A model generated the notes under the pieces. That model was not told the DNA's origin, did no database searches, and saw nothing but the letters and a program-made list of their open reading frames with translations. Shown one piece after another: positions 38,730 through 59,675 of a DNA stretch of 64,000 nucleotides; within the stretch, counting starts at the first letter, position 1, and each line of letters starts with the position of its first letter. Made by a program: the position numbers and the translations under genes. Source of the stretch: a bacterium (lineage in GTDB: Bacteria; Desulfobacterota; DSWW01); contig JANQFG010000265.1 in NCBI GenBank assembly GCA_028277985.1, positions 6,832-70,831 on the forward strand, written 5' to 3'.

Positions 38730-38735
38730 GGGGGT

Positions 38736-44174: not shown

Positions 44175-44600
44175 ATGGACGAGAAGAAACTTCAGACGCT
44201 GCTGGACCGAATGGAGATCATCGACACACAGAATCGCTACGCAACCGGAGTCGACACCCGGGACCGGGATTTGTATCGTTCCTGCTTCACGGACGAAATG
44301 GAATTGGACATGTCCGGGATGGGCCTGGGTGAGCCGATGACCCTATCCGCGGACATGTGGGTTGACCAGGCCATATCGCTGGTCAGCGGGTTCGAATCTA
44401 CCCAGCATATCATCACCAACCACGTGATCAGCATCGAAGGGGATAGGGCGACCTGCGTCGCCTATCTGCAGGCTCAGCACTATAACCCTGAGAACATGTA
44501 CACGGTGGGAGGCTACTACAGCAACTCGCTTGTCAGAACCCCTGACGGCTGGAAAATCAGCAAACTCAAGCTGACCCCTGCCTGGACGCAAAACACATAG
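44175..44600 (+). CDS. NTF2/SnoaL-like domain protein
   Basis: 141 aa. Contains LLDRMEIIDTQNRYATGVDTRDRDLYRSCFTDE...GGYYSNSLVRTPDGWKISKLKL. Confidence 0.65.
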   Translation: MDEKKLQTLLDRMEIIDTQNRYATGVDTRDRDLYRSCFTDEMELDMSGMGLGEPMTLSADMWVDQAISLVSGFESTQHIITNHVISIEGDRATCVAYLQAQHYNPENMYTVGGYYSNSLVRTPDGWKISKLKLTPAWTQNT

Positions 44601-44714: not shown

Positions 44715-46559
44715 ATGATGGCGTACAGAGTAGACATGAGAGATATCCACTTCAATCTGTTTGAGAAACTCGACATTGGGAACCTATGTGCCTTCGAGGC
44801 TTACAAGGACTTCTCCACGGACGACTACAAGATGATCTTGAACGAAGCTGAAAAGCTCGCCGTCAATGTGATTGCGCCCACCCTGGCACCTACGGACAAG
44901 GATGGGGCGAAGTTCGTGGAAGGGCAGGTCGTGGTTCCGGAGGAGGTGCGGGACACACTGCATAAGTTCAACGAGGGAGGCTGGGGAGCAGTGAGCGCCT
45001 CCCCTGAATTCGGAGGGCAGGGCCTGCCGGCGACCCTGGCCGTGGGTACAGGGGACATACTCGTTGCCGCCAATACGGGCTTCAGCGGCTATCAGGGGCT
45101 AACGAGTGCCACGGCCAATCTGATCGCGGAAGAAGGATCGGACTACCTGAAAGAGACCTATTGCGAAAAGATGCTCACAGGAGTCTGGGCCGGGGCCATG
45201 GTCCTCACCGAGGCCCAGGCGGGCAGCGCCGTAGGCGATATCAAGACCTCGGCCAAACGAGATGGAGACACCTATCTCCTGACAGGCAACAAGATATTCA
45301 TCTCCGGCGGGGATCACGACATGAACGAGAACATGGTCCATGTCCTTCTGGCCCGCGTGGAAGGGGCCCCGCCGGGTATCAAGGGTCTGAGCCTGTTCGT
45401 GGCGCCCAAATATCTTGTCAACCCGGATGGGACGATCGGCCAATTCAACCATCTGAAGGCTACAGGCGTAGAAGAGAAAATGGGGATGCACGCTTCTGCA
45501 ACCTGTTCGATCTCGTATGGAGAAGACGGCCCGTGCAGAGCCTGGATTATCGGTGAGGAGAACCAGGGTATCCAGATCATGTTCAAGCTGATGAACCATG
45601 CACGCCTTGGAGTCGGCATGCAGGGGGTTTCTCAGGCGGCGGCCGCGTATCAGCTTGCCCTTGACTACGCCAAAGAACGCATTCAAGGGACTCGCATTGA
45701 AGACGTGAGAGATGCTTCCGCGCCGAGCGTGCCCATTGTCGAGCATCCGGATGTTCGTCGCATGCTGTTGACCCAGAAGGCTGTCGTCGAAGCCACTCGG
45801 AGCCTGGTCTATTCTGTTTCCTATTGGCTCGATCGTGTGAACAACACCACCGATGATGAAGAAAGGCAACGTTACAGCGATCTCGTGGAGTTGCTCACGC
45901 CCATTTGCAAGGGTTATTCCACGGAGATGGCTTTCCATTCCATCACCCTCGCGTTACAGGTTCACGGCGGGTACGGATACTGCGAGGAATACGGAGTCTC
46001 CGTACTCCTGCGAGACGCAAAAATCGGTACCATCTATGAAGGCACCACCGGCATCCAGGCTATGGATCTCCTGGGACGCAAAGTGGCGATGCAGAAGGGT
46101 CGGCTGTTCCAGAATTTTGTAGGCCTGTTGAGTGATTTTGTGAAGAGCAACATCGCTCATCCGGAGCTGGAAAGGCATTTCAAGCTCCTGGGTGAGGCGA
46201 AGGACCAGCTGGTTGCTACCACGATTACGTTGGGAACAAAAGGAATGGGAGGCGATATCGCCTATCCATTGCAGTATGCCACCCCTTATCTGTTCATGTT
46301 CGGTCATGTGGCCTGCAGCTATTTCATCCTTGATCAGGCCCTGCTGGCGTATGAGAAGCTGCAAGCCATATACGAGGAAAAGGGGATTCGGGACGACGGG
46401 GGGAAAGCGCAGCTGGTGCAAGCACATGGCGACGCGAAATTCTATTTCAACAAGATCGAGACAGCCAAGTTCTTTGTTGCCAACATCCTGCCGGATGTGT
46501 ACGGGATCGCCAGGTCGGCGGAATCGGACGACAAGAGTCCGATGCATATCGTTTTTTAG
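44715..46559 (+). CDS. Long-form acyl-CoA dehydrogenase (~600 aa class)
   Basis: Contains GWGAVSASPEFGGQGLP, TEAQAGSAVGDIKTSA, KIFISGGDHD and MQGVSQAAAAYQLALDYAKERIQG. Confidence 0.85.
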   Translation: MMAYRVDMRDIHFNLFEKLDIGNLCAFEAYKDFSTDDYKMILNEAEKLAVNVIAPTLAPTDKDGAKFVEGQVVVPEEVRDTLHKFNEGGWGAVSASPEFGGQGLPATLAVGTGDILVAANTGFSGYQGLTSATANLIAEEGSDYLKETYCEKMLTGVWAGAMVLTEAQAGSAVGDIKTSAKRDGDTYLLTGNKIFISGGDHDMNENMVHVLLARVEGAPPGIKGLSLFVAPKYLVNPDGTIGQFNHLKATGVEEKMGMHASATCSISYGEDGPCRAWIIGEENQGIQIMFKLMNHARLGVGMQGVSQAAAAYQLALDYAKERIQGTRIEDVRDASAPSVPIVEHPDVRRMLLTQKAVVEATRSLVYSVSYWLDRVNNTTDDEERQRYSDLVELLTPICKGYSTEMAFHSITLALQVHGGYGYCEEYGVSVLLRDAKIGTIYEGTTGIQAMDLLGRKVAMQKGRLFQNFVGLLSDFVKSNIAHPELERHFKLLGEAKDQLVATTITLGTKGMGGDIAYPLQYATPYLFMFGHVACSYFILDQALLAYEKLQAIYEEKGIRDDGGKAQLVQAHGDAKFYFNKIETAKFFVANILPDVYGIARSAESDDKSPMHIVF

Positions 46560-46739: not shown

Positions 46740-47792
46740 TCAATCCCGGGTGAACTCCTCCATCCAGTCGCGCGGGTACCCCGGAATACCGCGGCCCATC
46801 CGGCCGAAGAGGACTTTCGAGTATTTGTAGTAGGCCGGCATGGAGGTGAGCATCTTCAGTTTGACCATGGGCGGGAGCCGGGTGATCGCCTCGAAAACGC
46901 GATAGAGATACATATGGTTGCGGTTCATCCGGTCGAACAGGACCTGGGCGCCGTCCCGATCCCGGAGGGCCAGCGCAGAGACCTTGCCGGATGTAAGGGC
47001 CCCGACGATACCGTAGCCGCAGTAAGGGTCGTAGCTGCCCGAGGCTGACCCGGTCATGATGTACCTGTTTCCCGGCCCGAAGAAGAGACGAGTGCCGATC
47101 ATCGTTTCGCAGTAGAAGGGCTTCCAGCCCTCGATTTCAATGCCTGCCCGCTCTCGAAATTGCCGGTCGATGGTCTTCAAGGCCTTCTCCTCGATCCGTG
47201 TTCGCCGGCCGAAGACAAGCCCGTAGAGGATGCCGTTCATGGCCACCGCGTAGAAATAGTCGGGCGAGTAGGTATCCGCGAACTGCCAGTTGGCAGGCCC
47301 AAGCTTGGTGTCCATGACAAAAGCGTAGCCGTATCCGTCTATGAGTTTGTGTACGGAAAAATCCTCCACCGTACACATCGTGCCGGTCGCCACGATACTG
47401 CCGGGTGGAATGTCCTTCAGCCTGTTGACCGGATGACCGAACTCGAACGCAACCCCGTGATCGAGGCAGATCTTGTACAGAAACGTGTCGATGGCCGTCT
47501 CCCGATCGCCTCGCTCCACGCCGTAGTGGTTCAGGTTCGGGAAGAGCCGCTTGTCCCGGATCCACAGTTGGGTCTCCGACAAGAGCTGGAAACAGCTCGA
47601 GACGTCGATACCGATGAGGTCCGACGTATACTGGAGGTCGATTGGTGTTGCATGAAGGGACGGATGATATGCCGGCGATCCGCCTATGGCCTTCTCCTTC
47701 TCCAGGACGAGAACCTCATCCCCCTGTCGCGCCAGATCGATGGCAGCAACCATCCCGGAAAGGCCCGCACCCACAACGGTTCTCTTCGGCAT
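46740..47792 (-). CDS. NAD(P)/FAD-dependent oxidoreductase (Rossmann GxGxxG, subfamily unassigned)
   Basis: Start set at ATG 47792, 7 nt after GGAGGA. Reads MPKRTVVGAGLSGMVAAIDLARQGDEVLVLEKEKAIGGS. Confidence 0.65.
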   Translation of the reverse strand: MPKRTVVGAGLSGMVAAIDLARQGDEVLVLEKEKAIGGSPAYHPSLHATPIDLQYTSDLIGIDVSSCFQLLSETQLWIRDKRLFPNLNHYGVERGDRETAIDTFLYKICLDHGVAFEFGHPVNRLKDIPPGSIVATGTMCTVEDFSVHKLIDGYGYAFVMDTKLGPANWQFADTYSPDYFYAVAMNGILYGLVFGRRTRIEEKALKTIDRQFRERAGIEIEGWKPFYCETMIGTRLFFGPGNRYIMTGSASGSYDPYCGYGIVGALTSGKVSALALRDRDGAQVLFDRMNRNHMYLYRVFEAITRLPPMVKLKMLTSMPAYYKYSKVLFGRMGRGIPGYPRDWMEEFTRD

Positions 47793-47845: not shown

Positions 47846-50770
47846 CTACACGTAATCATCGGTGACCGGAAGCACGTCCGGGTGCATCAGGTTGGCCGGA
47901 TCGAATGCCTTCTTCGTGTCCTTCAGAATCGTTAGATACTCCCCATGTTCGGCATACAGGGGGATGTGATACTCGCCGGCGCCGAACATGTTCCGGAAGA
48001 GAGAGCCTCCAAGCTCGAGCATGAGCTTCTGCGTCTTGTGCATCATGGTCGTAGCACGCTTCACATCCTCCGGGTTGCCCTGATCCCACCAGAAGTCGAC
48101 CTCGACGCCGCCCATGCGACCGTACGGCAGCGGTCCCTGGATGTCCGTGCCGGTCATGGCATGCTCCACGGAGACGGTCGGGTCCGAGGTCTTCCAGTAC
48201 TTCTGGACCAGCGCATCATATTTCACTGCAAACTCGGGGATCTTGTCCATCTTCATGTTGCACGCGGTCCACTGGAAGGCTCCCTTGTAGGTCCCGGCAA
48301 AGTTCTCTCTCACTCCGAGACTCATCTTGGTGGGGCCGGTGGTCTGCATTTCCGCCATCTCGTCTCCGAACATGCTACGATCGATGACCAGGAGACCGTA
48401 TTTCTGGACGATCTCGGTTACGATCTCCTTCTTGATCTCCAGTTCCTCGGCATCATACCCGCTGACAAGAGTCGCCAGAGGGTGTTGAGGGCTCATTCCG
48501 ATGACCCCCGGTACGGTGAGGCCTTCGAAGGCACTAACCATGGCCAGTGCAAAGAGCCCGGGATGTGCCTTGTAGATGAAGTCGGTGACGTTCTCCTGGG
48601 CAAGGTCGTGAATTGCTTCCAGGGTCTGGCAGAATGCATGATGAGAATCCGAGTCATAGTTGGCCGATACGACGTAATCCTCGAGGCCGTCTATCTTGTC
48701 GTTCTCCGGGTAGAGCTTTGCCGTCAACTCGGTGCAGACACCGAACATGCCGTCGGCGTTGAAGAACATCCCGAAAAGGTCGGGACCGGGCGTAAAATGC
48801 AGGGGAAGATTCCCTACATTCGGGATGGCGCTGGCGCCGGCCCGGTAGACTTCACCATTCGGCAGCACCCAGGTCATTGCGGAAGTCAATTCACAATTCG
48901 CGCCATACTTGAAGAGGGTCCCTGCGCCCCCCCGGGACACGTAGTTGGAGAGCAGAGAGACGCTCCCGAAGGTCAAGGGAAGAATCGGTTTCAGATGGAA
49001 CCCGTCCCTTGCCCTTCGCTCGACAGACTCCCACCATATGGAACGCATGCGGATGCCTGGATTCACGGATACGGTCATGGACTCTTCGTCGATCGACAGG
49101 AGGGAGTTGGCTCGCTTCAGATCGATCAGGATGCCGCCCTTGCGCGTGATCGCCAGGCCGCCATGATTGAACCCGGTGGACAGGGGTACGACCGGAACGC
49201 CATGTTCATAGGCGATCCGGATGACACGCTGCACCTCTTCGGTTGTCTCGGGGAGGACCGCGATGTTCGGACGTTCCCCGGAAAAGATGGTGAAGTCTCT
49301 GCCGTAGCTGCTCAAATCCACGGGGTTGTCGCTCACCCAGTTCGATCCAACCGCATCCCTGAGTTTCTCCTTTACGGCCTTCAAGTTGGATTCCGTCAGG
49401 CCGGTCTCGCCGCTCCCGACCCCGAGGGGCTGCCATTCCGGATCCCCGTCCTTGAGAATGCGGCCGGGATTCATGATGTTGTCCGGATCCAGGAACCCCT
49501 TGATCCGCTTGAGGAGTTTCAGGTGGTTCGGGATGCTCGTGTAGATCTTTCTTCCCAGTTCACCATGGGGGCGGTTGAAGAATGCCCCCAGGTCGGCCAG
49601 CTTTAGATTCAATGCGTCAACGGGTACGACCGGCTCCTGTCCGTCGGAGAACCAGTCGTACACGGCATGGACGCACCGGCCATGATCATAGGCGGTGTAG
49701 ATCTTGCCGGTCTGATCTTCAGGCAATCCGGCGGCGGACGCGGTCCTGGCTGTCTGGGCATCCAATGCCCCAAGTTTCGTAAACAGGGCATAGAACCCTG
49801 TGTGGCTCTCCCCGGCCTCCATCCAGGGTTGGTCGAGTTGTGGGGTCATGACGTCTACTAGATCTTTCTCAGGCCGGCACCTGTACGCCTGCAGATGCTT
49901 CTCGACCCTGTCCACGTTGTGCGCCACGTGCTTGGCCCTCCCCTCGAACCCGACGACCAGCACCCAGGGAGGATAGTCTTCTGCCGCACCTCGGAGCAGA
50001 TTCTTCAGGGACACATCGTTCATTCCCAGATACTCCCGGCCGAGCTCGGTGCGGGGCACCTCCTTCAACGCCCTGAGCAGCTCTTCCGAGTCGTCGAAAC
50101 CATATACGAGACAGGTTCGGACTTCACACACCGGCCACAGCAGGATCGTGGCGCGGGTCATGATGCCGAAGATATCATCGGACCCGAAGAACCAGTTCGA
50201 AAGGTGGGGGCCTCCGTCGCTCCTTCCATCCGACGGGTCTTTGGAAAAGCCGTGGGTCCCGGTCCTGTGAATGCGACCGTTCGGCATGATGAGCCGAAGA
50301 TTGCTCAGCGGATAATCCCAGAACTTGGACGCAGCCTTCGAGACCATGCGTGCCGTGTGGCATTCGGCAACCGAATCCGAGTTCGCTGCCAGAGGAGCGG
50401 CAGCTTTGACGCCCTGTCCCCGCAACTCAGCGTTCAGTTGCTCCCATGTGACGCCCCTCTGGACGTGGGCCATGAGGTTGCGGGCGTCGACCTGTTCGAT
50501 CCTGTTCATGCGGGAGAATTCGAGAAGAATCCCTTTCTTCTCCAGGTCTTCGGGAAGTAGATACCGATCGTTGGCGGTAATGATCGGCGTGGCGTTCTCA
50601 TGGGCCAGGTTCACGATCTGTTGGACCTGTTCATCGCAGGAAGGTGAGGCCACGACCATGTTGGGTGCCTGTTGTCCGGCTGCGAGGAGCTTCTTTGCAG
50701 CGAGAGGTCCCGACGATACGTTCTCTTGCCCAAGGATCGACCCTAGGCCTTCCAGGAGTGTCTGTTCCAT
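47846..50770 (-). CDS. Internally duplicated VAO/PCMH-type FAD-binding oxidoreductase (paralog 2, 974 aa)
   Basis: Start trimmed to MEQTLLEGLGSILGQENVSSG (G-rich SD). Collinear with paralogs 1 and 3 throughout. C-terminus reads HPDVLPVTDDYV. Confidence 0.85.
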   Translation of the reverse strand: MEQTLLEGLGSILGQENVSSGPLAAKKLLAAGQQAPNMVVASPSCDEQVQQIVNLAHENATPIITANDRYLLPEDLEKKGILLEFSRMNRIEQVDARNLMAHVQRGVTWEQLNAELRGQGVKAAAPLAANSDSVAECHTARMVSKAASKFWDYPLSNLRLIMPNGRIHRTGTHGFSKDPSDGRSDGGPHLSNWFFGSDDIFGIMTRATILLWPVCEVRTCLVYGFDDSEELLRALKEVPRTELGREYLGMNDVSLKNLLRGAAEDYPPWVLVVGFEGRAKHVAHNVDRVEKHLQAYRCRPEKDLVDVMTPQLDQPWMEAGESHTGFYALFTKLGALDAQTARTASAAGLPEDQTGKIYTAYDHGRCVHAVYDWFSDGQEPVVPVDALNLKLADLGAFFNRPHGELGRKIYTSIPNHLKLLKRIKGFLDPDNIMNPGRILKDGDPEWQPLGVGSGETGLTESNLKAVKEKLRDAVGSNWVSDNPVDLSSYGRDFTIFSGERPNIAVLPETTEEVQRVIRIAYEHGVPVVPLSTGFNHGGLAITRKGGILIDLKRANSLLSIDEESMTVSVNPGIRMRSIWWESVERRARDGFHLKPILPLTFGSVSLLSNYVSRGGAGTLFKYGANCELTSAMTWVLPNGEVYRAGASAIPNVGNLPLHFTPGPDLFGMFFNADGMFGVCTELTAKLYPENDKIDGLEDYVVSANYDSDSHHAFCQTLEAIHDLAQENVTDFIYKAHPGLFALAMVSAFEGLTVPGVIGMSPQHPLATLVSGYDAEELEIKKEIVTEIVQKYGLLVIDRSMFGDEMAEMQTTGPTKMSLGVRENFAGTYKGAFQWTACNMKMDKIPEFAVKYDALVQKYWKTSDPTVSVEHAMTGTDIQGPLPYGRMGGVEVDFWWDQGNPEDVKRATTMMHKTQKLMLELGGSLFRNMFGAGEYHIPLYAEHGEYLTILKDTKKAFDPANLMHPDVLPVTDDYV

Positions 50771-50887
50771 GATCCGTCCCCCCTTTTTGATGAGGTGATC
50801 AAGCGGCAATCATGGTAAGCATCCAGATCCATATCCGGTCGTCAGGAACTACGTTCCGTCCGCACATCTCAACACAGGATTCGTGTC

Positions 50888-53047
50888 CTAGCAAGAAGCA
50901 GACGGTCCGGGATGAATATTGACAGGAATCGCCGTCATCTGGGCAAGCCCGGTCACCGGATCGTATCGAACATCGTCGGGAATGAGGCGTTGCACATTGC
51001 TTCCCTTTTCCCGCACGTTCCGTTGGTCGGAAGGGTCTCCCCAGCCGAACGCGAGTCCGACCACATCCGGCTTCAGGTCCTCGGTCGATTCGACAACAGC
51101 CTCGACCGTGCCGAAGCCGCTGTCAACCACCACGATGTCATCGTCCTCGAGGCCGAGGGACTCCATGGCTGTCGGATGCATCAGTAAGGGGTTGAAAGAG
51201 CGCTTCTGCCGGAGAGACGGCAAATTCTGCCCCTGCGTGCAATACGCCTCTGGCATACGATAAGCGATCAAACGGAATCTGCATTCCTCTTCCGGCTCGT
51301 AGCCTCCGCCGGCGATCACCGGCTCGGCGCGGAGCACGCGCAGGTCTTTCAGAATCGCCGGGTGCCCGACCGCCATCTTCTTGTCTTCGTGCCCGATCAT
51401 GCTCGGGATGAGACCGCCGGCCTTGAGCTCTCGTTCGCCCCACACGTGGCCCCCCGGGTGCTGCTTGATTTCCCCCAGCGGTATACGCTTCATCGGCTGG
51501 AGAGCATCCATGAGTGCGTCGGCCGTCGGTCGGGAATCCATGCTCGTATTCGGAATATTCAGGTCGAGATCGAGCCGCCCGGCAAGACCCCAGAACACTT
51601 CCCAGTCCTCCAGAACACCTTCAGGGGGATCTACGAGCGGCGGTGAATACTGGCCGAAGGGGAAAGGGAAAGCGATATCGCCGAGCCTCGTCACATCCGG
51701 TCGCTCAAAAGGATGCCTCACCGGGAAGACATAGTCGGCAAACTTCGCCGTAGCAGACAGGAAGAGATCGTTGACCACGAGTAGATCAAGATCCTTCAAG
51801 GCTTGGACCGTGGACGCCTCATCCGGAAGTACAAGGGCGGGATTGCCGCCAAGCACGAAGAGGGCCCGGATCTTGCCCTCACCCGGGGTGAGCATCTCGT
51901 CCGTAAGGGTGTTACTCGGCAACTCGGCAAAACCACCCAGGACATTGAATATCCCCTTTACTTCCCTGATGCGGGATGTTTCGCCGCTTTCGAGGGCCAG
52001 GGGAAGCGGGCCCATACCATCCGGAAGCTCGAACCCGAGGGCGCCTTCGTTCCGGCCCATGCCTCCGGGGCGATCGAAGCGCCCGCACAGGGCGTTCAGG
52101 GTCATGACGAGGTGTACCGCGAGGTTCTGGTGACGCGCCATGTGCACTCCCTGACCGCTCAGAGCGCCGCCTTTCTTCGCAGCGGCAAACGCCCGAGCCG
52201 CTTCGAGAATCAGCTGCTCCGGCACTTGTGAACGTCTGGAAACATAGGGAAGGTCGAAGTCCTCGAGGGATGCACGGAGTTCGTTCACGCCGCCCACATT
52301 GTCGAGAACGTACTGCCTGTCGTAAAGCTCCTCTTCCAGGATGACCCTGACCATTCCGGCCAGGAGGGCAGGGTCCTCCCCCGGTTTCACCTGCAGGTGG
52401 ATATCCGCCAGCTTGGCGATGGAACTTCGCCTGGGATCGACGACGATGACCTTCATGCCTCTCTTGCGGCCGTCCGTCAGTCGTTTGAGGGGATTCGACT
52501 GGGGCATGATCAACTGTTTCGAATCGACCGGATTCGTGCCCACGAACATGGCAACATCGGCCCTGTGCACATCGAACAGGCTCACAGGGACGGGACCGCC
52601 GAACAAACGGAACAAGGCAACCGAATAAGCGGGCGAGTCGATGGTGAAGCAGGTATAGAAGCTCGGCGATCCGAGGGCCTCGATGAACTTGGAGGCGAAC
52701 CAGGGACCCGCGGCTGAGTTGCGATACCCCCCGCACCCGACGTATGCGGCAACGGATCGGGGGCCGTATTGGTCTACGATTTCTTCCAGTTTTTGAGCGA
52801 TCTCGTCCAGGGCCTGCTCAGAGGGGAGTTCGCTTCTGTGGCCGTCCGCGAGCTTCCGGGTAGACAGGAGTCGGTCCGGATGGTAGATGCGTTCAAGCTC
52901 CGATCTGCCTTTGATACACGTATAGCCTTCTGAAACGGGATTGTCCGGATCTCCGCGAACCGCCACGGCACGGTTGTCGTCTACGTCCACCTCGATTCCA
53001 CAGGAGGCGTGGCAGAACCGACAGAATGACTTCTTCGTTTCAACCAT
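50888..53047 (-). CDS. Cytoplasmic Mo/W-bis-pyranopterin (MopB superfamily) oxidoreductase, catalytic subunit only
   Basis: Start trimmed to MVETKKSFCRFCHASCGIEV...GYTCIKG, giving an N-terminal CxxCxxxC...C [4Fe-4S] motif. There is no twin-arginine signal. The C-terminus has a molybdopterin dinucleotide-binding barrel (DDDIVVVDSGFGTVEAVV). Confidence 0.8.
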   Translation of the reverse strand: MVETKKSFCRFCHASCGIEVDVDDNRAVAVRGDPDNPVSEGYTCIKGRSELERIYHPDRLLSTRKLADGHRSELPSEQALDEIAQKLEEIVDQYGPRSVAAYVGCGGYRNSAAGPWFASKFIEALGSPSFYTCFTIDSPAYSVALFRLFGGPVPVSLFDVHRADVAMFVGTNPVDSKQLIMPQSNPLKRLTDGRKRGMKVIVVDPRRSSIAKLADIHLQVKPGEDPALLAGMVRVILEEELYDRQYVLDNVGGVNELRASLEDFDLPYVSRRSQVPEQLILEAARAFAAAKKGGALSGQGVHMARHQNLAVHLVMTLNALCGRFDRPGGMGRNEGALGFELPDGMGPLPLALESGETSRIREVKGIFNVLGGFAELPSNTLTDEMLTPGEGKIRALFVLGGNPALVLPDEASTVQALKDLDLLVVNDLFLSATAKFADYVFPVRHPFERPDVTRLGDIAFPFPFGQYSPPLVDPPEGVLEDWEVFWGLAGRLDLDLNIPNTSMDSRPTADALMDALQPMKRIPLGEIKQHPGGHVWGERELKAGGLIPSMIGHEDKKMAVGHPAILKDLRVLRAEPVIAGGGYEPEEECRFRLIAYRMPEAYCTQGQNLPSLRQKRSFNPLLMHPTAMESLGLEDDDIVVVDSGFGTVEAVVESTEDLKPDVVGLAFGWGDPSDQRNVREKGSNVQRLIPDDVRYDPVTGLAQMTAIPVNIHPGPSASC

Positions 53048-53069
53048 ACAGAAGACCCCACTCTGAAGA

Positions 53070-55028
53070 TCATATCTCCCGACCGATCGCCGCGGCGTCT
53101 GCAGTGGCCTGGAGTGCAGTGGCAGGGTGCCGGGCATCGCCGATCACATGGACTTCGGGCACCTTGTCCTTGATCGCTGCAGAGAGGTTGTCGCCCGACT
53201 TCGCGCCTGTAGCCAGAATGATATACTCTGCACCCTGAACGGACACCTCCTGGCCGTCTTTCGTGTATACCACGCCCCCATCCACGATTTCCTTGGCTTT
53301 TGCCCCGAGCAGAATCTCCACTCGCTTTTCGTGCAGCCTCTCCATGAGCAGGTGCCTCGCCTCTGAGTTGCCGTCCAGAGCGAGCCTGTCCTGCATCTCC
53401 AGGATGGTCACGTGGGTGGCCGCCACCCCCATATTGTCCGTGGTTTGTGCCAGGAAGTCCGCCGTTTCGCAACCAACAAGGCCGCCCCCGATGATGACGA
53501 CGTTGCCGGCCAAAGAAGCCTCGTGGCCGGCCAGGACCTCCCAGGCCGTGACGACATTGTCCTTGTCGGTCCCCTCAAGACCTTCCGGAACCAGGGGTGT
53601 GGCCCCTGTGGCTACGACGAGCACATCCGGCTTGCGTTCGTCGATGAGTTCCGGGGTCACCTCCCTGCCCAGCTCCACCTGTACGCCCGCCTTCTCTGCC
53701 TGTGTGGATAGGTACTGGATGAGCTGGCTGATCTCCTGCATGAAGGGGGGTACGCTGGCGATGTTGATCTGACCGCCCAGCTTCTCTTCCTTCTCACAGA
53801 CCGTCACCTTGTGGCCCCTCAGGGCCGCCACCCGAGCTGTTTCGAGCCCGGCCGGGCCTCCGCCCACAACCAGGACCTGCTTAGGTTCGTCCGCGGGGAC
53901 GAGGGCCATCTCCTTCTCCCTTCCCGCCGCCGGATTCACGATGCAGGTGGCGAGTTGACCCTGTACAACCGTGCCGATACATCCGATGTTGCAGGCAATG
54001 CATGGGGCGATGTCATCCAGGTTACCTTGAGCCGCCTTGTTCGGCAGCTCAGGGTCTGCGTGGAGCGCGCGTCCCATGGACACCATATCCGTCTTTCCGG
54101 TTTCCAGAACGAACTCCGCCACCCGGGGGGTGTTGATCCTTCCTACGCAGATGACCGGTATGTCGACAACCTCTTTGATGCCATGGGCGAAGTCTGCATT
54201 GAGTGCGAGAGGGGTTCCCGAAGGGGCAACAACGGCCCAGAAGACGTTGGGGATGGTGCCGCCGGATACCTCGATGGCGTCTACACCTGCGTCGACGAGA
54301 ATGCGGGCGACGAACTGGCTCTCCTGGAGGGTTCGACCACCGGTCCGCCGCTCGTCACCGGCGATGCGAACGATGATGGGGAAGTCGGGTCCGACCTTGT
54401 CCCGGGCCGATTGGATGATGTCCAACAGGATCTTCGCTCTCCGTTCCAGGGAACCACCATAGGCGTCCGTTCGCTTGTTGAAGAAGGGGGACATGAAGGA
54501 CCCGACCAGGGCATAACCGTGCGCGGCATGGATCTCCACCGCGTCGACGCCGGCTTGCTGGGCCCGCCGGACCGCCTGGCCGAAGTCCTCTACAATGGCC
54601 TCGATTTCGCTGCTGCTGAGCTCTCTGGGCATACTTCGAAAGATGCCCCGGCTGGCAACGGGCGACGGGCCGAGAGGATCCGCCCCGGTCAGGACCTTCA
54701 TCGCCTCGGGCCCGGGGTCCATGAGTTGCGCCGCCAGCTTGCCGCCCTGGCGATGTACCGCATCCGCCAACTCCTTCCAGCTCGGGATCACGTCATCATC
54801 GAACAAAGCGAGCGGGACCACCCCGTACTTGCGTCCGGGATGCACGGCGCAAGCCTCGGTGATGATGAGACCCACACCACCCTTTGCGCGAGCTTCGTAG
54901 TAGTCGCGGTATCTCTCCGTGACGCTTCCGTCCATGGCACCATAGCCCATGTGCATGGGAGGCATGACGATTCTGTTTCGTACGACCATGCTTCCGATTT
55001 CGATGGGGGTGAACAAGTGTTTGAACAT
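53070..55028 (-). CDS. OYE-like FMN / [4Fe-4S] / FAD-NAD(P) oxidoreductase (FadH family), second copy
   Basis: N-terminus MFKHLFTPIEIGSMVVRNRIVMPPM. Cys cluster CIACNIGCIG...ATC. Then VLVVGGGPAGLETA and VVIIGGGLVGCETA. Confidence 0.85.
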   Translation of the reverse strand: MFKHLFTPIEIGSMVVRNRIVMPPMHMGYGAMDGSVTERYRDYYEARAKGGVGLIITEACAVHPGRKYGVVPLALFDDDVIPSWKELADAVHRQGGKLAAQLMDPGPEAMKVLTGADPLGPSPVASRGIFRSMPRELSSSEIEAIVEDFGQAVRRAQQAGVDAVEIHAAHGYALVGSFMSPFFNKRTDAYGGSLERRAKILLDIIQSARDKVGPDFPIIVRIAGDERRTGGRTLQESQFVARILVDAGVDAIEVSGGTIPNVFWAVVAPSGTPLALNADFAHGIKEVVDIPVICVGRINTPRVAEFVLETGKTDMVSMGRALHADPELPNKAAQGNLDDIAPCIACNIGCIGTVVQGQLATCIVNPAAGREKEMALVPADEPKQVLVVGGGPAGLETARVAALRGHKVTVCEKEEKLGGQINIASVPPFMQEISQLIQYLSTQAEKAGVQVELGREVTPELIDERKPDVLVVATGATPLVPEGLEGTDKDNVVTAWEVLAGHEASLAGNVVIIGGGLVGCETADFLAQTTDNMGVAATHVTILEMQDRLALDGNSEARHLLMERLHEKRVEILLGAKAKEIVDGGVVYTKDGQEVSVQGAEYIILATGAKSGDNLSAAIKDKVPEVHVIGDARHPATALQATADAAAIGREI

Positions 55029-55070
55029 GGTGGCTCCTTTCTGACGAAGAGTACCTCGACTGTGGGTCCT

Positions 55071-55892
55071 CTAGTCGCGACGAATCTTTCGGAAGGCCTT
55101 TATCGCTTCTCTGTTCATGAGGTCCATGGCGTTCGGATGGATGCGCTGGAGCCACCACATGAACCGGGCATGGAACGGGAACACCATGATTCCCTTGTTG
55201 CGTTCCACCCCTTTCAGGATCTCCCCTGCCGCCTTGGTTACGTCCATCCGTTTGAAGGGTACCTGAGCGTAGAACTCATCATTGTCCGCCTTGCGTATGG
55301 TGGCGGCATCGTAGAGGCCGGTCTGCACGAATCCCGGGCAGACTACGCTGACCTTGACTCCCAGGGCGGCTCCTTCGGCCCGCAGAGAGGTGGAGAGACC
55401 CACAATGGCGTGTTTGGTGGTGACATAGAGGCAGTTGGTCGGGATCGAGACGAGGCCCAGGACCGAGGCCGTGTTCACGATGTGACCGAAACCCTGTTCG
55501 ACCATGAGTGCGTAGGCAGCGACGGTACCATGGAGGGCCCCCAGAAGGTTGATACGGATAATGCGGTCCCAGTGTTCCTTTTCCATGTCTCGCGCCTCGC
55601 CCTGGATGGCGATGCCCGCGTTGTTGAACATGTAGTCCAGCCGTCCGTGTTCGGCCGCGGTCTGTTCGATCAACTTCTTGATATCCTCTTCCGAGGTCAC
55701 GTCCAGGTGCGTCGGCTGGGCCTTGCCCCCGTTTTCCAGAATCCCCTCGGCAACCTTGTTCGCCCCCTCAACGTCGATGTCGGACACGACGACCGTTGTT
55801 CCGCGTCTGCCCAGGGCCTGGGAGACGGCACGTCCGATACCTGACGATCCTCCCGTGACGATCGCTACTTTTCTTTCGAAGGGATTCTTCAT
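55071..55892 (-). CDS. Classical SDR-family oxidoreductase
   Basis: Contains KVAIVTGGSSGIGRA, NNAGI and YVTTKHAIVGLS (YxxxK). Confidence 0.85.
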   Translation of the reverse strand: MKNPFERKVAIVTGGSSGIGRAVSQALGRRGTTVVVSDIDVEGANKVAEGILENGGKAQPTHLDVTSEEDIKKLIEQTAAEHGRLDYMFNNAGIAIQGEARDMEKEHWDRIIRINLLGALHGTVAAYALMVEQGFGHIVNTASVLGLVSIPTNCLYVTTKHAIVGLSTSLRAEGAALGVKVSVVCPGFVQTGLYDAATIRKADNDEFYAQVPFKRMDVTKAAGEILKGVERNKGIMVFPFHARFMWWLQRIHPNAMDLMNREAIKAFRKIRRD

Positions 55893-56003
55893 CTCGAGTC
55901 ACTCCGCCCGACTTGGTTTGCCGGCACGTCCCTCAAGGGAATTGATCCGCCGAGCCATTTCTATCAAGAAACCGAGCAGGAAACGACCGGGATCCTAGCT
56001 TGT

Positions 56004-56148
56004 CCTTCGGTATTCGGAATTTATACTATTCGTAACATAGCAGGGGCGGCCTGTCAACAAAAACTATTCATTTTGCAATTTCTTTGATTAAGTAATATAT
56101 TGACATATATATATAAATACACGGTCTTGAGAATGACATGTCATTCTC
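56004..56148. promoter_or_regulatory. Regulatory module copy A: TATTCGGAA/TATTCGTAA boxes, ATATATTGACATATA box, perfect 20-bp palindrome GAGAATGACATGTCATTCTC
   Basis: Blocks lie at 56004-56038, 56094-56108 and 56129-56148. The same blocks, in the same order and with the same spacing, recur at 59533-59675. Confidence 0.7.
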
Positions 56149-56274: not shown

Positions 56275-56417
56275 TAGAGCATAGGAAACTTGACCGATGG
56301 GACAATTTTTTCGTTGACCCCCCAATGAAACGGCATGCCGGGGCAAGGGGGTTGGCGAATCATTCGGGGTCCGAGGGTTTCAAATCCCCAATGAGCAGCC
56401 AGGAAGGAGTCGTCACC

Positions 56418-59339
56418 ATGGAAGGACAGATCTTGAACGAGCTGAAGGCGATCGTTGGAGAGGAGAACGTTTCAGAGGGGACCGCCGGAACCCAGCGATT
56501 CCTGCGCCCGGGCTGGGAAACGCCTTTCCTGGTGAGCGTGCGTCCGAAGAAAGACGAAGAAGTGCAAAAGATCGTGGATCTGGCTCGGGAGAATCGAACA
56601 CCGATCGTGACGACGAATGATCGTTATCTCCTTGAAGAAGACCTGGAGAAGGAAGGCATCTTCCTGGATTTTGAATGCATGAATGAGATCGAGGTCATAG
56701 ACGGCTACACGTTGATGGCCCACGTTCAAAGGGGTGTAACCTGGCATCAGCTCAATGAAGCTCTGAGGACCCATGGAATGAAAGCGGCCGCCCCTGTTGC
56801 GGCCAATTCCAATTCCGTGGCGGAATCGCATGCGGCCCGGGTCGTCGGCAAGGCGTCGTCAAAATACTGGGACTATCCTGCCACTAACCTGAGATTGGTG
56901 CTGGCCAATGGTCGGGTTCATCGGACCGGGACCCATGGGTTCAGCGACGAGTCGGACGGCAGAAACGAGGGGGGGCCGAACCTGTCCAACTGGTTCTTCG
57001 GCGCCGATGATGTTCTTGGAGTCATGACCAGGGCCTCCATCATGCTCTGGCCTGTACGTGAGAGTCGTACTTGCCTGGTGTACGGATTCGAAGATGTCGA
57101 TGAAATGCGAAGTGCCATGAAGAATGTTCCCCGCACGGAGCTGGGGGTAGAGTTTGTGGGCATGAACCGGGTCTCCATGGCGAACCTGCTGGGCGGAGAC
57201 CCCCAAGATTATCCTGCCTGGAGCCTGACGATCGGTTTTGACGGACGGGCCAAGCGAGTCGAACACAATACGGATCGAGTGGGCAAGCTCATGCAGAAGT
57301 TCGAGTGCCGGCAGGAAGACCGGCTCGTCGCGCCCATGACCGAGCAGCTGGATCTGCCCTGGATGGAAGCGAGTGACTACCACACGGGTTTCTATGCCCT
57401 CTTCTCCAAGATGAAGGCGCTTGACGCCGAGGTTGACAAGTCATCGGCTGCGGCGGGCCTTTCACCCGAGAAGGTAGGGAAGATCTATTCTTCTTTCGAC
57501 CACGGAAGAGCCGTGTACGCCGTTTATGACTGGTTTTCCGATGATCCGGCCCATGGTTCTGCCATGGACGCTATGAATATGTCCCTGGCAGATCTGGGCG
57601 CTTTCTTTGATCGTTCCCATGGAGAGCTCGGGCGTAAGATCTATACGAGCATTCCGAATCACTTGCCGGTGCTGAAACACATAAAGAAGATGCTCGATCC
57701 CGAAAATGTGATGAATCCGGGTCGCATCATGAAGGAGGAAGATCCGGAGTGGCAGCCCCTCGAGACCGGAAACGGCGAAATCGGATTGACGGTCTCCAAT
57801 ATAGAAGAGGTCAAGAACAAGCTGGCTGAATGTGTCGGCCAGGAGTGGGTGAGCAACAACCCGGTCGACCTGAGCGCCTACGGCCGGGATTTCACCATCT
57901 TCTCCGGTGAGCGACCGAACATTGCGGTTCTACCCCGGACCACCGAAGAGGTCCAGGCCGTTATCCGGACGGCTTATGAACATGGCATCCCGGTGGTTCC
58001 CCTGACTTCGGGATTCAATCATGGAGGCCTGGCCATTACCCGCAAGGGCGGCATCCTCATCGATCTCAAGCGTATGGCTGACCTGATGTCCTTTGACGAG
58101 GAGGCCATGTCCGTCTCGATAGGCCCTGGGATCCGGATGCGCTCGCTCTGGTGGGAATCGGTACGACGCAGAGCGTACGAAGATTTTCATTTGAAACCGA
58201 TTCTGCCGCTGACGCTGGGCAGTGTATCGCTCCTGTCGAACTATGTCTCCCGTGGAGGAGCCGGCTCCCTGTTCAAGTACGGGTTGAACCCCGAGTTGAC
58301 GGCCGGCATGACCTGGGTGCTGCCGAATGGCGAGGTGTTGAAGGTCGGTCCGAGCGCTGTGCCGAATGTGGGGAACCTTCCCCTCCACTTCACGCCGGGT
58401 CCGGATTTGTGCGGTATGTTCTTCAATGCGGACGGCATGTTGGGTGTTTGCACCGAGTTGACGGCAAAGCTCTATCCGGAGAAGGACAATGCCGCGGATT
58501 TCGAGGATTACGTGACTGCAGCCAACTATGATCCGGATTTTCATCATGCCTTCAGCCAGACAGTCAAGGCCATTCATGAAATCGGCCAGGAGAACATAAC
58601 CGACTTCATCTACAAGGCCCATCCCGGCCTCTTCGCCCTGGCAATGGCTGAAATGTTTGAAGAGGTGACCGTCTCGAGCGCTATCAACGTGGCCCCGCAA
58701 CATCCTGTCTCGTCGGTGGTCAGCGGGTATGATGAAGAAGAGCTGGAAATCAAGAAGGAGATCGTGGCCGAGATCGTCCAGAAATATGGGCTCATGGTGA
58801 TTGATCCCGCCATGTTCGGCGAAGGATTGGCGGAAGCGCAATCAACCGATACCACGAAGATGAGTCTCGGAATCAAGGACAACTATGTGGGAGCTTACAA
58901 GGGGGCGTTCCAGTGGACCGCCTGCAACCTGAGGATGGACAAGATTCCGGAATTCGCGCGGAGGTATGATCAGCTGGTGCAGAAATACTGGAAGACCTCT
59001 GATCCGAAGATTTCCGTGGAGCACGCCATGACCGGAACGGACATTCAGGGACCCCTTCCATTTGCACGGGCGGGAGGTATCGAGGTGGACTTCTGGTGGG
59101 ACCAGGGCAACCCGGAAGAGGTGAAAAGAGCAACCACCATGATGCACAAGACCCAGAAGCTCATGCTGGAATTCGGAGGGGCCCTCTTTCGAAACATGTT
59201 CGGCGCAGGTGAATACCATATGCCGCTCTGGGGCAAAGTAAGTGAGTACTACAATATCTTGAAGGACACGAGAAAGGCCTTTGATCCGGCCAACCTCATG
59301 CACCCGGACGTGTTGCCGTCTACGGACGACTATATCTAG
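56418..59339 (+). CDS. Internally duplicated VAO/PCMH-type FAD-binding oxidoreductase (paralog 3, 973 aa)
   Basis: ATG 56418 (SD AGGAAGGAG). Reads MEGQILNELKAIVGEENVSEG and is very similar to paralog 2 across long blocks. C-terminus reads HPDVLPSTDDYI. Confidence 0.85.
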   Translation: MEGQILNELKAIVGEENVSEGTAGTQRFLRPGWETPFLVSVRPKKDEEVQKIVDLARENRTPIVTTNDRYLLEEDLEKEGIFLDFECMNEIEVIDGYTLMAHVQRGVTWHQLNEALRTHGMKAAAPVAANSNSVAESHAARVVGKASSKYWDYPATNLRLVLANGRVHRTGTHGFSDESDGRNEGGPNLSNWFFGADDVLGVMTRASIMLWPVRESRTCLVYGFEDVDEMRSAMKNVPRTELGVEFVGMNRVSMANLLGGDPQDYPAWSLTIGFDGRAKRVEHNTDRVGKLMQKFECRQEDRLVAPMTEQLDLPWMEASDYHTGFYALFSKMKALDAEVDKSSAAAGLSPEKVGKIYSSFDHGRAVYAVYDWFSDDPAHGSAMDAMNMSLADLGAFFDRSHGELGRKIYTSIPNHLPVLKHIKKMLDPENVMNPGRIMKEEDPEWQPLETGNGEIGLTVSNIEEVKNKLAECVGQEWVSNNPVDLSAYGRDFTIFSGERPNIAVLPRTTEEVQAVIRTAYEHGIPVVPLTSGFNHGGLAITRKGGILIDLKRMADLMSFDEEAMSVSIGPGIRMRSLWWESVRRRAYEDFHLKPILPLTLGSVSLLSNYVSRGGAGSLFKYGLNPELTAGMTWVLPNGEVLKVGPSAVPNVGNLPLHFTPGPDLCGMFFNADGMLGVCTELTAKLYPEKDNAADFEDYVTAANYDPDFHHAFSQTVKAIHEIGQENITDFIYKAHPGLFALAMAEMFEEVTVSSAINVAPQHPVSSVVSGYDEEELEIKKEIVAEIVQKYGLMVIDPAMFGEGLAEAQSTDTTKMSLGIKDNYVGAYKGAFQWTACNLRMDKIPEFARRYDQLVQKYWKTSDPKISVEHAMTGTDIQGPLPFARAGGIEVDFWWDQGNPEEVKRATTMMHKTQKLMLEFGGALFRNMFGAGEYHMPLWGKVSEYYNILKDTRKAFDPANLMHPDVLPSTDDYI

Positions 59340-59532: not shown

Positions 59533-59675
59533 CCTTCGGTATTCGGAAATTATAGGTTCCGTAACATGTGCGTGATCCCTGCCTACAGAATCCGTATATC
59601 TGATTCTATTGAGTTTAATTAATATATTGACATATAAAAGAAAATGGACCATCATGAGAATGACATGTCATTCTC
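59533..59675. promoter_or_regulatory. Regulatory module copy B, ending in the identical 20-bp palindrome (59656-59675)
   Basis: CCTTCGGTATTCGGAAATTATAGGTTCCGTAACAT at 59533-59567, AATATATTGACATATA around 59621-59636, and GAGAATGACATGTCATTCTC at 59656-59675, directly upstream of the TetR gene. Confidence 0.7.

Follow-up and report, generated by a model that had tools for sequence, protein, structure and literature searches.

We analyzed a 64,000-nucleotide (nt) stretch of contig JANQFG010000265.1, here called the window, from an uncultured Syntrophobacteria-like Desulfobacterota bacterium in a coral metagenome. It contains a five-gene cluster on the minus strand. The cluster, whose gene order is conserved, is probably a catabolic or biotransformation module. 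The third gene encodes a cytoplasmic molybdenum or tungsten (Mo/W) enzyme of the MopB superfamily. By its sequence, this enzyme belongs to a large, distinct clade that has Asp at the predicted metal-ligand position, on a scaffold like those of formate dehydrogenase (Fdh) and acetylene hydratase (Ahy). Among solved structures, curated family models, and papers, we found none that covers the clade.

Five-gene cluster

The first gene of the cluster (positions 55071 to 55892) encodes a classical short-chain dehydrogenase/reductase (SDR) of 273 amino acids (aa). It contains the TGxxxGIG and YxxxK motifs and matches Pfam adh_short (1e-53). The second gene (53070 to 55028) encodes a 652-aa tri-domain iron-sulfur (Fe-S) flavoenzyme of the FadH/2-naphthoyl-CoA reductase (NCR) type, with matches to Oxidored_FMN (3e-73) and Pyr_redox_2 (4e-27). 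We refer to it as the old yellow enzyme (OYE) protein. The third gene (50888 to 53047) encodes the MopB protein, a 719-aa Mo/W bis-pyranopterin guanine dinucleotide enzyme with Molybdop_Fe4S4 (3e-18), Molybdopterin (4e-30), and Molydop_binding (5e-15) domains. The fourth (47846 to 50770) encodes a 974-aa fused double flavoprotein of the vanillyl alcohol oxidase (VAO)/p-cresol methylhydroxylase (PCMH) type. The last (46740 to 47792) encodes a 350-aa FAD protein in which Pfam recognizes only an N-terminal FAD Rossmann domain. All five genes are consecutive and lie on the minus strand.

The intergenic gaps are 42, 22, 117, and 53 nt in the 5' to 3' order of the cluster. A terminator scan of the window found no terminator-like site in any of the four. 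An earlier annotation made from the letters alone (the sequence-only reading) had given the same gene coordinates, with spacings of 22 to 117 nt and a further 53 nt before the flavoprotein gene. The open reading frames (ORFs), the Pfam matches, and the start-codon evidence all agree with it.

The program-made ORFs are longer than these genes for MopB (beginning at 53137), the double VAO (50809), and the flavoprotein (47807). The sequence evidence indicates that the shorter starts are the better choice. All 28 aligned MopB homologues begin with M-x-E-T-K-K-S-F-C-R-F-C-H, which corresponds to the Met at 53047, and the longer ORF would run into the OYE gene. We therefore place the MopB start at 53047. 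The VAO start at 50770 has a good Shine-Dalgarno sequence, AAAGGGGGG, before it. The flavoprotein start at 47792 is preceded by the Shine-Dalgarno sequence GGAGG, and the SDR ATG is preceded by a similar GGAGTG. The sole public sequencing run with window DNA is a coral metagenome.

MopB protein and its presumed metal ligand

The MopB protein contains the three Pfam domains of the superfamily in order, the four FS0 cysteines, and a Lys two residues after the fourth. The cysteines (C9, C12, C16, and C44, in the pattern CxxCxxxC...C) are invariant in an alignment of 28 family members. The protein has no Tat signal, because the first cluster Cys is already residue 9. A 30-residue upstream ORF extension, which contains "PRRSVG", was considered as a Tat signal. 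It was rejected because it lacks a hydrophobic region, is not found in any of the homologues, and overlaps the OYE gene. The cysteine motif and the missing Tat signal had both been described in the sequence-only reading, correctly on each count. These features predict a cytoplasmic, stand-alone Mo/W bis-pyranopterin enzyme that has kept its [4Fe-4S] cluster and its Lys electron relay.

In HMMER alignments against the Protein Data Bank (PDB), Asp137 of MopB takes the position of Cys173, which is the Mo ligand in PsrA, and of the selenocysteine (Sec) in the F420-dependent Fdh. Asp137 sits within the motif Y-T-C-F-T-I-D-S-P. Its spacing from the GSP motif is that of the tungsten ligand Cys141 in acetylene hydratase. 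The next residue is Ser138, where Fdhs have His after Sec or Cys. Asp137 is invariant in the 28 family members. We also aligned 122 divergent full-length sequences, consisting of the query and 121 cluster representatives (50% identity, at least 650 aa). The ligand column contains Asp in 119 of these and Glu in the other 3. Apart from a small number of gaps at the N terminus, the four FS0 columns contain only Cys. Of the 122 sequences, 113 have Lys46, and His13 is a trait limited to the subfamily of the query. The metal-ligating residue, which the sequence-only reading had marked for identification, is thus predicted by alignment to be Asp137.

An AlphaFold2 (AF2) model of MopB had a pLDDT of 76. 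In Foldseek searches it resembled Fdh, Nap, Ahy, and Psr alike (TM score, 0.65 to 0.68), and no family was singled out.

Relationship of MopB to known families

The MopB protein scores far below the curated NCBIfam models. It reached 248 bits with the Fdh-alpha model TIGR01591 (cut-off, 666), 191 bits with NasC (cut-off, 1100), 188 bits with PhsA (cut-off, 694), 32 bits with EbdA (cut-off, 2000), and 36 bits with NarG. The match to DMSO_red_II_alp was 93 bits (cut-off, 985). In a single-sequence search of the PDB, MopB was about equally far from PsrA, cytoplasmic Fdhs, acetylene hydratase, and NapA, with PsrA as the top match. Ethylbenzene dehydrogenase (2ivf) matched over only 62 residues. 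No chain of pyrogallol transhydroxylase was among the 57 PDB sequences with E values of 1e-3 or less, no gene for its beta subunit was found, and the ligand column holds Asp.

When the family profile was searched against the PDB, acetylene hydratase was the best solved match (212 bits), and the cytoplasmic Fdhs scored 187 to 210 bits. Dehydroxylase-type homologues reached 287 bits (Kuenenia), 237 bits (Archaeoglobus fulgidus), and 213 bits (Thauera). Over the N-terminal 250 residues, the scores were 132 bits for Ahy, 113 for PsrA, about 110 for Fdh, 109 for Hcdh, 92 for Dadh, 88 for Dodh, and 81 for Cldh. The catechol dehydroxylase references were taken from the supplements of PMC7028382, four of them as N-terminal parts only. 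Their ligand segments contain Cys: QICKGP in Eggerthella lenta, DSCYQPR in Gordonibacter, and AQCFHPR and HFCYAPR in Thauera AR-1, Kuenenia, and Archaeoglobus. The motif C-R-x-C-H-x-x-C-G is common to the query and the homologues from Thauera AR-1, Kuenenia, Archaeoglobus, and Streptomyces tirandamycinicus.

A neighbor-joining (NJ) tree was built from Kimura distances over 249 N-terminal columns with 200 bootstraps; its deep branching order is not trustworthy. The Asp clade was monophyletic in 165 of 200 replicates. Its sister was the Fdh pair in 82 replicates and Ahy in 22. The dehydroxylases formed a separate cluster. The sequence-only reading had named tight clustering with Fdhs or another housekeeping clade as the outcome that would speak against it. 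The low Fdh-alpha score, the Asp-Ser pair in place of Sec/Cys-His, and the bootstrap support for the Asp clade all point the other way. The kinship to hydroxylases and transhydroxylases that the same reading had suggested was not borne out, since EbdA gave only 32 bits, no transhydroxylase matched, and nothing else specific was found.

Several identities were considered for MopB and rejected. It is not an Fdh, since Asp137-Ser138 replaces Sec/Cys-His and its score lies well under the cut-off. Judged by these residues it is also not an acetylene hydratase, in which Cys141 and Asp13 correspond to Asp137 and His13 of MopB. The Cys ligand, the Tat signal, and the PsrB/PsrC partners of PsrA/PhsA are all lacking. 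Of the traits of the type II enzymes (NarG/EbdA/S25dA), it has the Asp ligand by alignment; their kinship, length of more than 900 aa, Tat export (not a trait of Nar), and partners are missing. Pyrogallol-phloroglucinol transhydroxylase shows no detectable kinship and has Ser in the ligand column where MopB has Asp. The catechol dehydroxylases score lower, have Cys in the ligand segment, and form their own NJ cluster.

Distribution and gene neighborhoods

We found 2361 relatives of MopB in a set of 5.8 billion proteins. The best 120 are 58 to 86% identical to it, about 716 aa long, and without names. A profile search of 1.84 billion cluster representatives retrieved 150 clusters (50% identity) with scores of 339 to 1128 bits. 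Most are near full length (about 700 to 750 aa), and 121 are at least 650 aa long. With one genome per GTDB species, 529 stretches from about 500 species genomes encode relatives. The taxon names given here come from the best 80 of the 529 stretches, and the neighborhood counts come from 74 species-level loci.

Metagenome-assembled genomes (MAGs) of Thermodesulfobacteriota, Syntrophobacteria, and "Deltaproteobacteria" encode MopB proteins that are 64 to 82% identical to that of the window. The cultured strains Aromatoleum diolicum, A. toluolicum, A. tolulyticum, and Azoarcus sp. Aa7 encode proteins that are 57% identical. Relatives were also found in the aerobic Halieaceae, Microthrixaceae, Ilumatobacteraceae, Binatia, and Myxococcota. 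Aerobes such as Halieaceae and Microthrixaceae carry the family as commonly as anaerobes do, and it is therefore not a marker of anoxic chemistry. The sequence-only reading, which had seen hints of anaerobic functionalization of a ring or side chain, is not supported on this point. Its term "O2-independent hydroxylase" is treated here as a hypothesis and not as a finding. The combination of an Fdh/Ahy scaffold, an Asp ligand, no partner subunit, and occurrence in both aerobes and anaerobes is unlike that of every characterized MopB group.

A ferredoxin-type ORF lies within 3 kb of MopB in only 1 of the 74 loci, so the partner-less state is a trait of the family. The SDR is the commonest direct neighbor (adjacent in 10 loci, within 2 kb in 18). 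A SnoaL_4 gene is adjacent in 3 loci and within 10 kb in 16; it directly follows the MopB homologues in L001 and L090. Other recurring neighbors encode acyl-CoA dehydrogenases (ACADs), zinc-dependent alcohol dehydrogenases, CurA-like enone reductases, KstD-like flavoproteins, acyl-CoA ligases, and CaiB-type CoA transferases. Apocarotenoid/lignostilbene-type dioxygenases, Rieske alpha subunits, and P450s also recur. Pfam assignments for 126 ORFs, all within 3 kb of the homologues in the first 24 of the species loci, gave a mixed picture with no conserved partner. The OYE gene adjoins MopB in 2 of the 74 loci, within a narrow lineage only. The pairing of OYE and MopB, which the sequence-only reading had called suggestive, does not extend across the family.

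In A. toluolicum, the MopB gene faces genes for SRPBCC, zinc-dependent alcohol dehydrogenase, SDR, SnoaL_4, SDR, and CurA-like proteins. Downstream of it are genes for a 2-oxoacid:ferredoxin oxidoreductase of two subunits, an SDR, and a KstD-like flavoprotein.

Some neighborhoods showed further features. In about 10 aerobic Halieaceae genomes (such as L051 and L084), a gene for a Rieske alpha subunit lies directly upstream of MopB on the same strand (about 8600 to 9950), and in L084 the gap is about 55 nt. An RPE65-type apocarotenoid/lignostilbene dioxygenase neighbors MopB in about 9 loci, mostly actinobacterial or myxobacterial. In a MAG labeled Spirochaetaceae (L004/L005, 6734 to 12163), two paralogous MopB genes face each other with an SDR gene between them. 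They adjoin genes for CrtI-like flavoproteins and an acyl-CoA ligase.

Conserved synteny and the variable fourth gene

Three metagenome contigs (L006, L007, and L087) encode MopB proteins that are 80 to 84% identical to that of the window. They share one gene order. A tetR gene is divergent from SDR-OYE-MopB, which is followed by a variable gene, the 350-aa flavoprotein gene, and a convergent gene for a long ACAD. Behind tetR are genes for a nitroreductase-Fer4 protein, luxE, and luxC. Since L087 ends just past MopB, the gene order downstream of MopB comes from L006 and L007 alone. The window and L006 are 87% identical in the SDR, 84% in the OYE protein, 86% in the flavoprotein, 86% in the ACAD, 78% in LuxE, 78% in TetR, and 64% in the nitroreductase.

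The variable fourth gene is the double VAO in the window. In the syntenic relatives it is a gene for a 365-aa Fe-S protein directly after MopB. The sequence-only reading had called MopB lone, with no adjacent Fe-S or cytochrome subunit. This is true of the window, and 73 of the 74 loci have no ferredoxin-type ORF within 3 kb of MopB. It does not extend to the syntenic relatives, where the Fe-S protein gene adjoins, so the lack of an Fe-S neighbor is a local and not a conserved state. The product of the variable gene would be the best candidate for the electron partner of MopB.

The window encodes a paralogue of the L006 Fe-S protein at 7104 to 8324 (minus strand; Pfam Fer4), which is 36% identical to it over 356 aa. 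This family of 365- to 406-aa proteins (L006, 12307 to 13404) has two C-terminal [4Fe-4S] clusters and additional CYCRH... and CNCCxCxC motifs; its N-terminal domain has no family assignment. In L033, four copies of the family surround a MopB homologue.

A second lineage (L002 and L091) encodes a MopB protein that is 62% identical. There it is followed by a different OYE gene (34% identical), a double VAO, and TetR. Genes for a PaaK-like adenylating enzyme, a small FAD protein, and a CrtI-like protein are also present. The order of MopB and OYE is opposite to that of the window. This adjacency, with another OYE protein and the reverse order, is hard to explain without functional coupling. In L090, the MopB-SnoaL_4 pair is surrounded by genes for a CrtI::GltD fusion, a nitroreductase-Fer4 protein, SDRs, an aldehyde:ferredoxin oxidoreductase (AOR), and an ACAD, as in the wider window.

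Flavoenzymes of the cluster

The OYE protein has the full layout of the FadH/NCR type: an OYE TIM barrel, the CxxCxxxC...C motif (CxxCxxxC at residue 343), and a C-terminal FAD/NAD(P) domain. Its best solved relative is 2-naphthoyl-CoA reductase (6qkg; 324 bits over the full length, about one-third identity), ahead of FadH (1ps9; 284 bits). This agrees with the placement near NCR and FadH in the sequence-only reading. The protein is below all NCBIfam cut-offs, including those for BaiCD (546 of 825 bits), the long bilirubin reductase BilR (523 of 750), and the mycofactocin OYE2 (517 of 793). The substrates of NCR and BaiCD therefore cannot be transferred to it. Identity as NCR, BaiCD, or bilirubin reductase proper was rejected, since neither equivalog-level scores nor close identity was reached. 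A second tri-domain FadH/OYE gene is present at 28857 to 30917 (plus strand). Its product is 36% identical to the cluster OYE protein, and a motif scan found no CxxCxxxC match in it. A gene for a DUF362 protein with Fer4 follows (28857 to 32083 for the pair, plus strand).

The double VAO shows the VAO/PCMH-type composition, with two FAD_binding_4 stretches and FAD-oxidase_C. The FAD domain in its C-terminal half (residues 457 to 701) resembles PCMH, eugenol oxidase, and VAO (about 85 bits). The similarity to 4-alkylphenol-type VAO/PCMH enzymes is limited to this domain, and the cap domain is outside the match. The N-terminal half resembles AGPS (alkyl-DHAP synthase; 48 bits). The family comprises 79 clusters, is about 970 to 985 aa at full length, occurs only in MAGs, and has no name. 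In at least 4 cases, the same contig encodes a double-VAO and a MopB homologue. The window contains three paralogues of about 975 aa, at 1972 to 4917 (plus strand), 47846 to 50770 (minus strand), and 56325 to 59339 (plus strand), with mutual identities of 64 to 70%.

The 350-aa flavoprotein gave an AF2 model with a pLDDT of 93.7. Foldseek matched the model to VioD, KMO, the geranylgeranyl reductase (GGR) Ta0516 (TM score, 0.64), and a Sulfolobus GGR (TM score, 0.68). Over all of these matches, E values were 1e-13 to 3e-17 and TM scores were 0.55 to 0.68. As modeled, the protein has the p-hydroxybenzoate hydroxylase/geranylgeranyl reductase fold. Paralogues that are 35 to 37% identical are encoded near MopB in L002, L088, and L091. 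The family contains 74 clusters, none from a cultured organism. A paper on a flavoprotein of anaerobic benzene degradation (PMC13416013) was also considered, but its GlcDEF-like heterotrimer is unrelated to the cluster.

Divergent operon and putative operator

The genes next to the SDR end of the cluster are on the plus strand. The first is the third double-VAO paralogue (56325 to 59339), a 1004-aa ORF identified by Pfam that is 70% identical to the cluster gene (VAO-1004). Its true start is probably Met23, at about 56391. It is followed by genes for a TetR-family regulator (59676 to 60335; TetR_N, 8e-18), a nitroreductase-family flavoprotein with two N-terminal [4Fe-4S] clusters (60369 to 61283; Nitroreductase, 3.5e-25, with Fer4), and a LuxE-type acyl-protein synthetase, an adenylating enzyme (61318 to 62655; LuxE, 2.7e-21). 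An open frame from 62665 to 64000 continues beyond the window end. It is assigned to a LuxC-like acyl-CoA reductase by synteny alone, as LuxC (PF05893) follows LuxE in L006 and L087. The nitroreductase-Fer4 gene is conserved in L006, L087, L088, and L090.

A perfect 20-bp palindrome, GAGAATGACATGTCATTCTC, is present in two exact copies in the window, with 0 expected by chance. Copy 1 (56129 to 56148) lies in the divergent spacer between the SDR gene and VAO-1004, 23 nt downstream of a TTGACA at 56100 to 56105. Copy 2 (59656 to 59675) abuts the tetR start codon and is likewise 23 nt downstream of a TTGACA (59627 to 59632). Copies with one mismatch occur 26 nt before tetR in L006, L007, and L087. 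Because of this conservation, the palindrome is a phylogenetically footprinted, putative TetR operator. VAO-1004 is absent from these three contigs, where tetR directly faces the SDR gene. It appears that an insertion separated tetR from the SDR operon and brought in VAO-1004 along with a duplicate of the promoter-operator unit.

A block upstream of the SDR gene (55990 to 56056, minus strand; TTGACAGG...TATGTTACGAATAGTATAAATTCCGAATACCGAAG) is conserved with L006 and L087. It contains TTGACA and lies about 100 to 165 nt upstream of the SDR start. The block was read directly from the sequence, and a consensus promoter scan did not call it; its promoter function is presumed. The block also contains a direct repeat, TTCGG-TA-TTCGG (56000 to 56015), which could be a second regulator site. 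The MopB module and the adjoining TetR-controlled operon are probably in the same regulon. No molybdenum cofactor riboswitch, other Rfam family, or tRNA was found in the window.

Proposed function and alternatives

Our proposal, which is tentative, is that MopB performs a water-dependent hydroxylation or hydration of a hydrophobic organic substrate and is coupled to the other enzymes of the cluster. The Asp-ligated Mo/W center would move a water-derived oxygen or hydroxyl onto a substrate carbon. The substrate would probably be alicyclic, isoprenoid, or aryl-carboxylate-like. In a hydroxylation, electrons would pass through the [4Fe-4S] cluster to a neighboring flavoprotein or Fe-S protein. 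Alternatively, the enzyme may hydrate its substrate in a redox-neutral reaction like that of acetylene hydratase. The SDR would oxidize the resulting alcohol to a ketone. The NCR/FadH-type enzyme, the GGR-fold flavoprotein, and the double VAO may handle C=C bonds and electrons, and LuxE/LuxC and the ACAD may act on the carboxyl or thioester end.

Ethylbenzene dehydrogenase and steroid C25 dehydrogenase are Asp-ligated Mo enzymes that use water to hydroxylate hydrocarbons, and an SDR then takes over the product. Acetylene hydratase shows that a MopB scaffold can also hydrate. We favor hydroxylation or hydration because of this precedent for Asp ligation, because the nearest solved relative of the scaffold is a hydratase, and because the SDR is the most frequent direct neighbor of MopB.

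Several points weigh against this proposal. The metal ligand is assigned by alignment, and two of the five HMMER alignments place Asp137 one residue off. Because SDR genes are common, finding one next to MopB counts for little. The neighborhoods are heterogeneous, although all are catabolic, and no partner is conserved across the family. Aerobic loci also carry P450, Rieske, and RPE65 oxygenases nearby. Since the family is frequent in such oxygenase-bearing aerobes, an O2-independent hydroxylase would not be needed there. A reductive role would account equally well for the many NAD(P)H-linked reductases in the window. No RNA runs containing the window sequence were found, and co-transcription is presumed. 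With operator copy 1 about 75 nt upstream of the putative promoter of the SDR gene, control of the MopB operon by TetR is no more than plausible. Neither a characterized member of the clade nor this gene combination was found in the literature searched.

A reductive role is somewhat unlikely. MopB would be a dehydroxylase or deoxygenase that receives NAD(P)H electrons through the FadH-type FAD/[4Fe-4S] enzyme, the Fe-S protein, the double VAO, or ferredoxin. The CRxCH-xxCG motif is shared with a MopB protein from the 3,5-dihydroxybenzoate cluster of Thauera aromatica AR-1 and with the Kuenenia, Archaeoglobus, and Streptomyces tirandamycinicus homologues. These were grouped with homologues from the yatakemycin and CC-1065 clusters as putative dehydroxylases (PMC7028382). 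They are also the next-best scorers of the family profile, at 213 to 287 bits against 212 for Ahy. The window supplies reductases in two OYE/FadH proteins, three CrtI::GltD fusions, and the nitroreductase-Fer4 protein, and MopB in A. toluolicum is followed by the 2-oxoacid:ferredoxin oxidoreductase. However, the ligand segment contains Cys instead of Asp in both the characterized catechol dehydroxylases and the Thauera-type proteins. Their scores over the N-terminal 250 residues (81 to 109 bits) are below those of Ahy, Psr, and Fdh (110 to 132 bits), and the NJ tree groups them apart. The abundance of the MopB family in obligate aerobes also argues against this role.

It is unlikely that the neighbors do not form one pathway and that MopB acts alone on an unrelated small substrate, shuffled into a flavoenzyme-rich genomic island; the operon-like layout would then result from tight packing of genes. 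The 74 species-level loci, which lack a conserved neighbor and have OYE adjacent in only 2, are consistent with this. So are the swap of the fourth gene between lineages (VAO or Fe-S protein), the position of MopB among unrelated housekeeping genes in L001, and the 117-nt gap after MopB, which could hold a promoter. Coupling is favored by the SDR-OYE-MopB order, which is kept in three independent contigs with gaps of 22 to 42 nt and identities of 80 to 87%. It is favored as well by the adjacency of MopB and OYE in the second lineage, where the OYE protein is 34% identical and the order is reversed. A housekeeping or inorganic role, as an Fdh or as an assimilatory nitrate, polysulfide, thiosulfate, S-oxide, or N-oxide reductase, is very unlikely. 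The top NCBIfam matches (Fdh-alpha, NasC, and PhsA), the best single-sequence PDB match (PsrA), and the Fdh pair as nearest group in 82 of 200 NJ replicates would fit it. But the scores are 3- to 6-fold under the curated cut-offs, the Sec/Cys-His of Fdh is replaced by Asp-Ser, and MopB lacks the Cys ligand of Nas, Nap, and Psr. It also has neither a Tat signal nor a PsrB/C-type partner, and the neighbors throughout are catabolic genes for organic substrates.

A bolder form of the hydroxylation or hydration proposal is quite unlikely on present evidence. The Asp-ligated, partner-less clade of about 720 aa would be a new catalytic class that hydrates or hydroxylates unactivated C=C, C-triple-bond-C, or C-H groups of isoprenoid or alicyclic compounds. 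Acetylenic or polyene breakdown products of carotenoids and apocarotenoids in the coral holobiont would be an example. In this way, alcohols and ketones would be formed both in aerobes (with RPE65 and Rieske proteins nearby) and in anaerobes (with NCR-type ene-reductases and CrtI-like saturases).

Wider window

The gene convergent with the cluster (44715 to 46559, plus strand) encodes a long ACAD of 614 aa with Acyl-CoA_dh_N/M/1 and Acyl-CoA_dh_C domains. Its L006 orthologue, 86% identical, has the same position. A SnoaL_4 (NTF2-like) protein is encoded at 44175 to 44600 (plus strand; SnoaL_4, 3e-28). Directly upstream of both (39734 to 44158, plus strand) are genes for an HlyD-type adaptor and an AcrB-type resistance-nodulation-division pump. 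The pump is consistent with the handling of a hydrophobic compound.

The window is unusually dense in the CrtI/amine oxidase family. Three tandem genes (15677 to 24691, plus strand) encode fusions of about 1000 aa that join a CrtI/amine oxidase-like part to a GltD-like part (Fer4_20 and Pyr_redox_2). Two of the fusions are 59% identical. They may be NAD(P)H-driven saturases or desaturases of polyenes or ketones. The second ORF (18555 to 21737) overlaps the first (15677 to 18745) by about 190 nt, and its true start is probably downstream of the ORF start; the first Pfam match begins at residue 111. A CrtI::GltD fusion faces the MopB homologues in L074 and L090. Five further CrtI/amine oxidase genes, with mutual identities of 20 to 27%, are located at 12621 to 14273, 24744 to 27935, and 32092 to 34808.

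A tungsten-type AOR followed by two SDRs (43% identical) is encoded at 35304 to 39752 (plus strand). An AOR flanked by SDRs is also found near the MopB homologue in L090. The product of a gene at 534 to 1547 (minus strand) has a MopE-type Cu-binding motif, and L002 and L091 have similar genes immediately upstream of MopB.

Comparison with known systems

Mo/W bis-pyranopterin enzymes catalyze difficult reactions without O2, such as hydrocarbon hydroxylation, acetylene hydration, and phenol dehydroxylation. The clade delimited here comprises at least 122 divergent full-length representatives (50% identity clusters) from about 500 species-level genomes of aerobes and anaerobes. The double-VAO and 350-aa flavoprotein families are likewise without characterized members and known from MAGs only. 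The function of MopB is directly testable in the cultured Aromatoleum members, and the TetR-operator pair may serve as a ligand sensor.

The gene content of the module is analogous to that of the bai operon. In bai, an SDR, FadH/OYE Fe-S flavoenzymes, a SnoaL-like protein, acid-activating enzymes, and a transporter are arranged around an alicyclic carboxylate. The analogy is one of gene content only. The bai operon has no molybdoenzyme or VAO protein, and no window protein tested reaches a bai equivalog score. The cluster OYE protein and the NCR/FadH-type enzymes have an identical layout of FMN TIM barrel, [4Fe-4S] cluster, and FAD/NAD(P)H domain.

Acetylene hydratase of Pelobacter acetylenicus (2e7z) is, like the window MopB, a cytoplasmic stand-alone protein of about 720 aa with CxxCxxxC...C, no Tat signal, and no partners. 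It gave a Foldseek TM score of 0.68 and was the best match over the N-terminal 250 residues (132 bits). It differs in that its Cys141, Asp13, and Ile142 correspond to Asp137, His13, and Ser138, and the identity is about 21%. No acetylene-related gene context was seen around the window MopB. The cytoplasmic Fdhs (FdhF/FdhH, HDCR FdhF, and F420-Fdh) have the same domain order and a similar size. They differ in the Sec/Cys-His pair, and the window has no hydrogenase or NAD-linked partner genes.

The catechol dehydroxylase group of PMC7028382 (Dadh/Hcdh, Dodh/Cldh, Thauera AR-1, and CC-1065/yatakemycin) is also Ahy-related and acts on organic substrates. The Gordonibacter, Thauera, and Streptomyces-type proteins of this group have no Tat signals, like the window MopB. 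The Eggerthella dehydroxylases are Tat-exported and have Fe-S and membrane partners.

The type II hydroxylases (EbdA and the steroid C25 and p-cymene dehydrogenases) share the Asp ligand, which is presumed in the window MopB, and a hydrophobic-substrate context with an SDR. In the ethylbenzene pathway, the SDR takes the alcohol product. These enzymes differ in being periplasmic and Tat-exported, with alpha subunits of 900 to 1000 aa and with Fe-S beta and heme b gamma partners. Their similarity to the window MopB is negligible. The Asp ligand of MopB, if real, was probably acquired independently of the type II family. If this Asp truly binds the metal, Asp ligation arose outside the Nar/Ebd lineage, and a new reaction type would therefore be likely.

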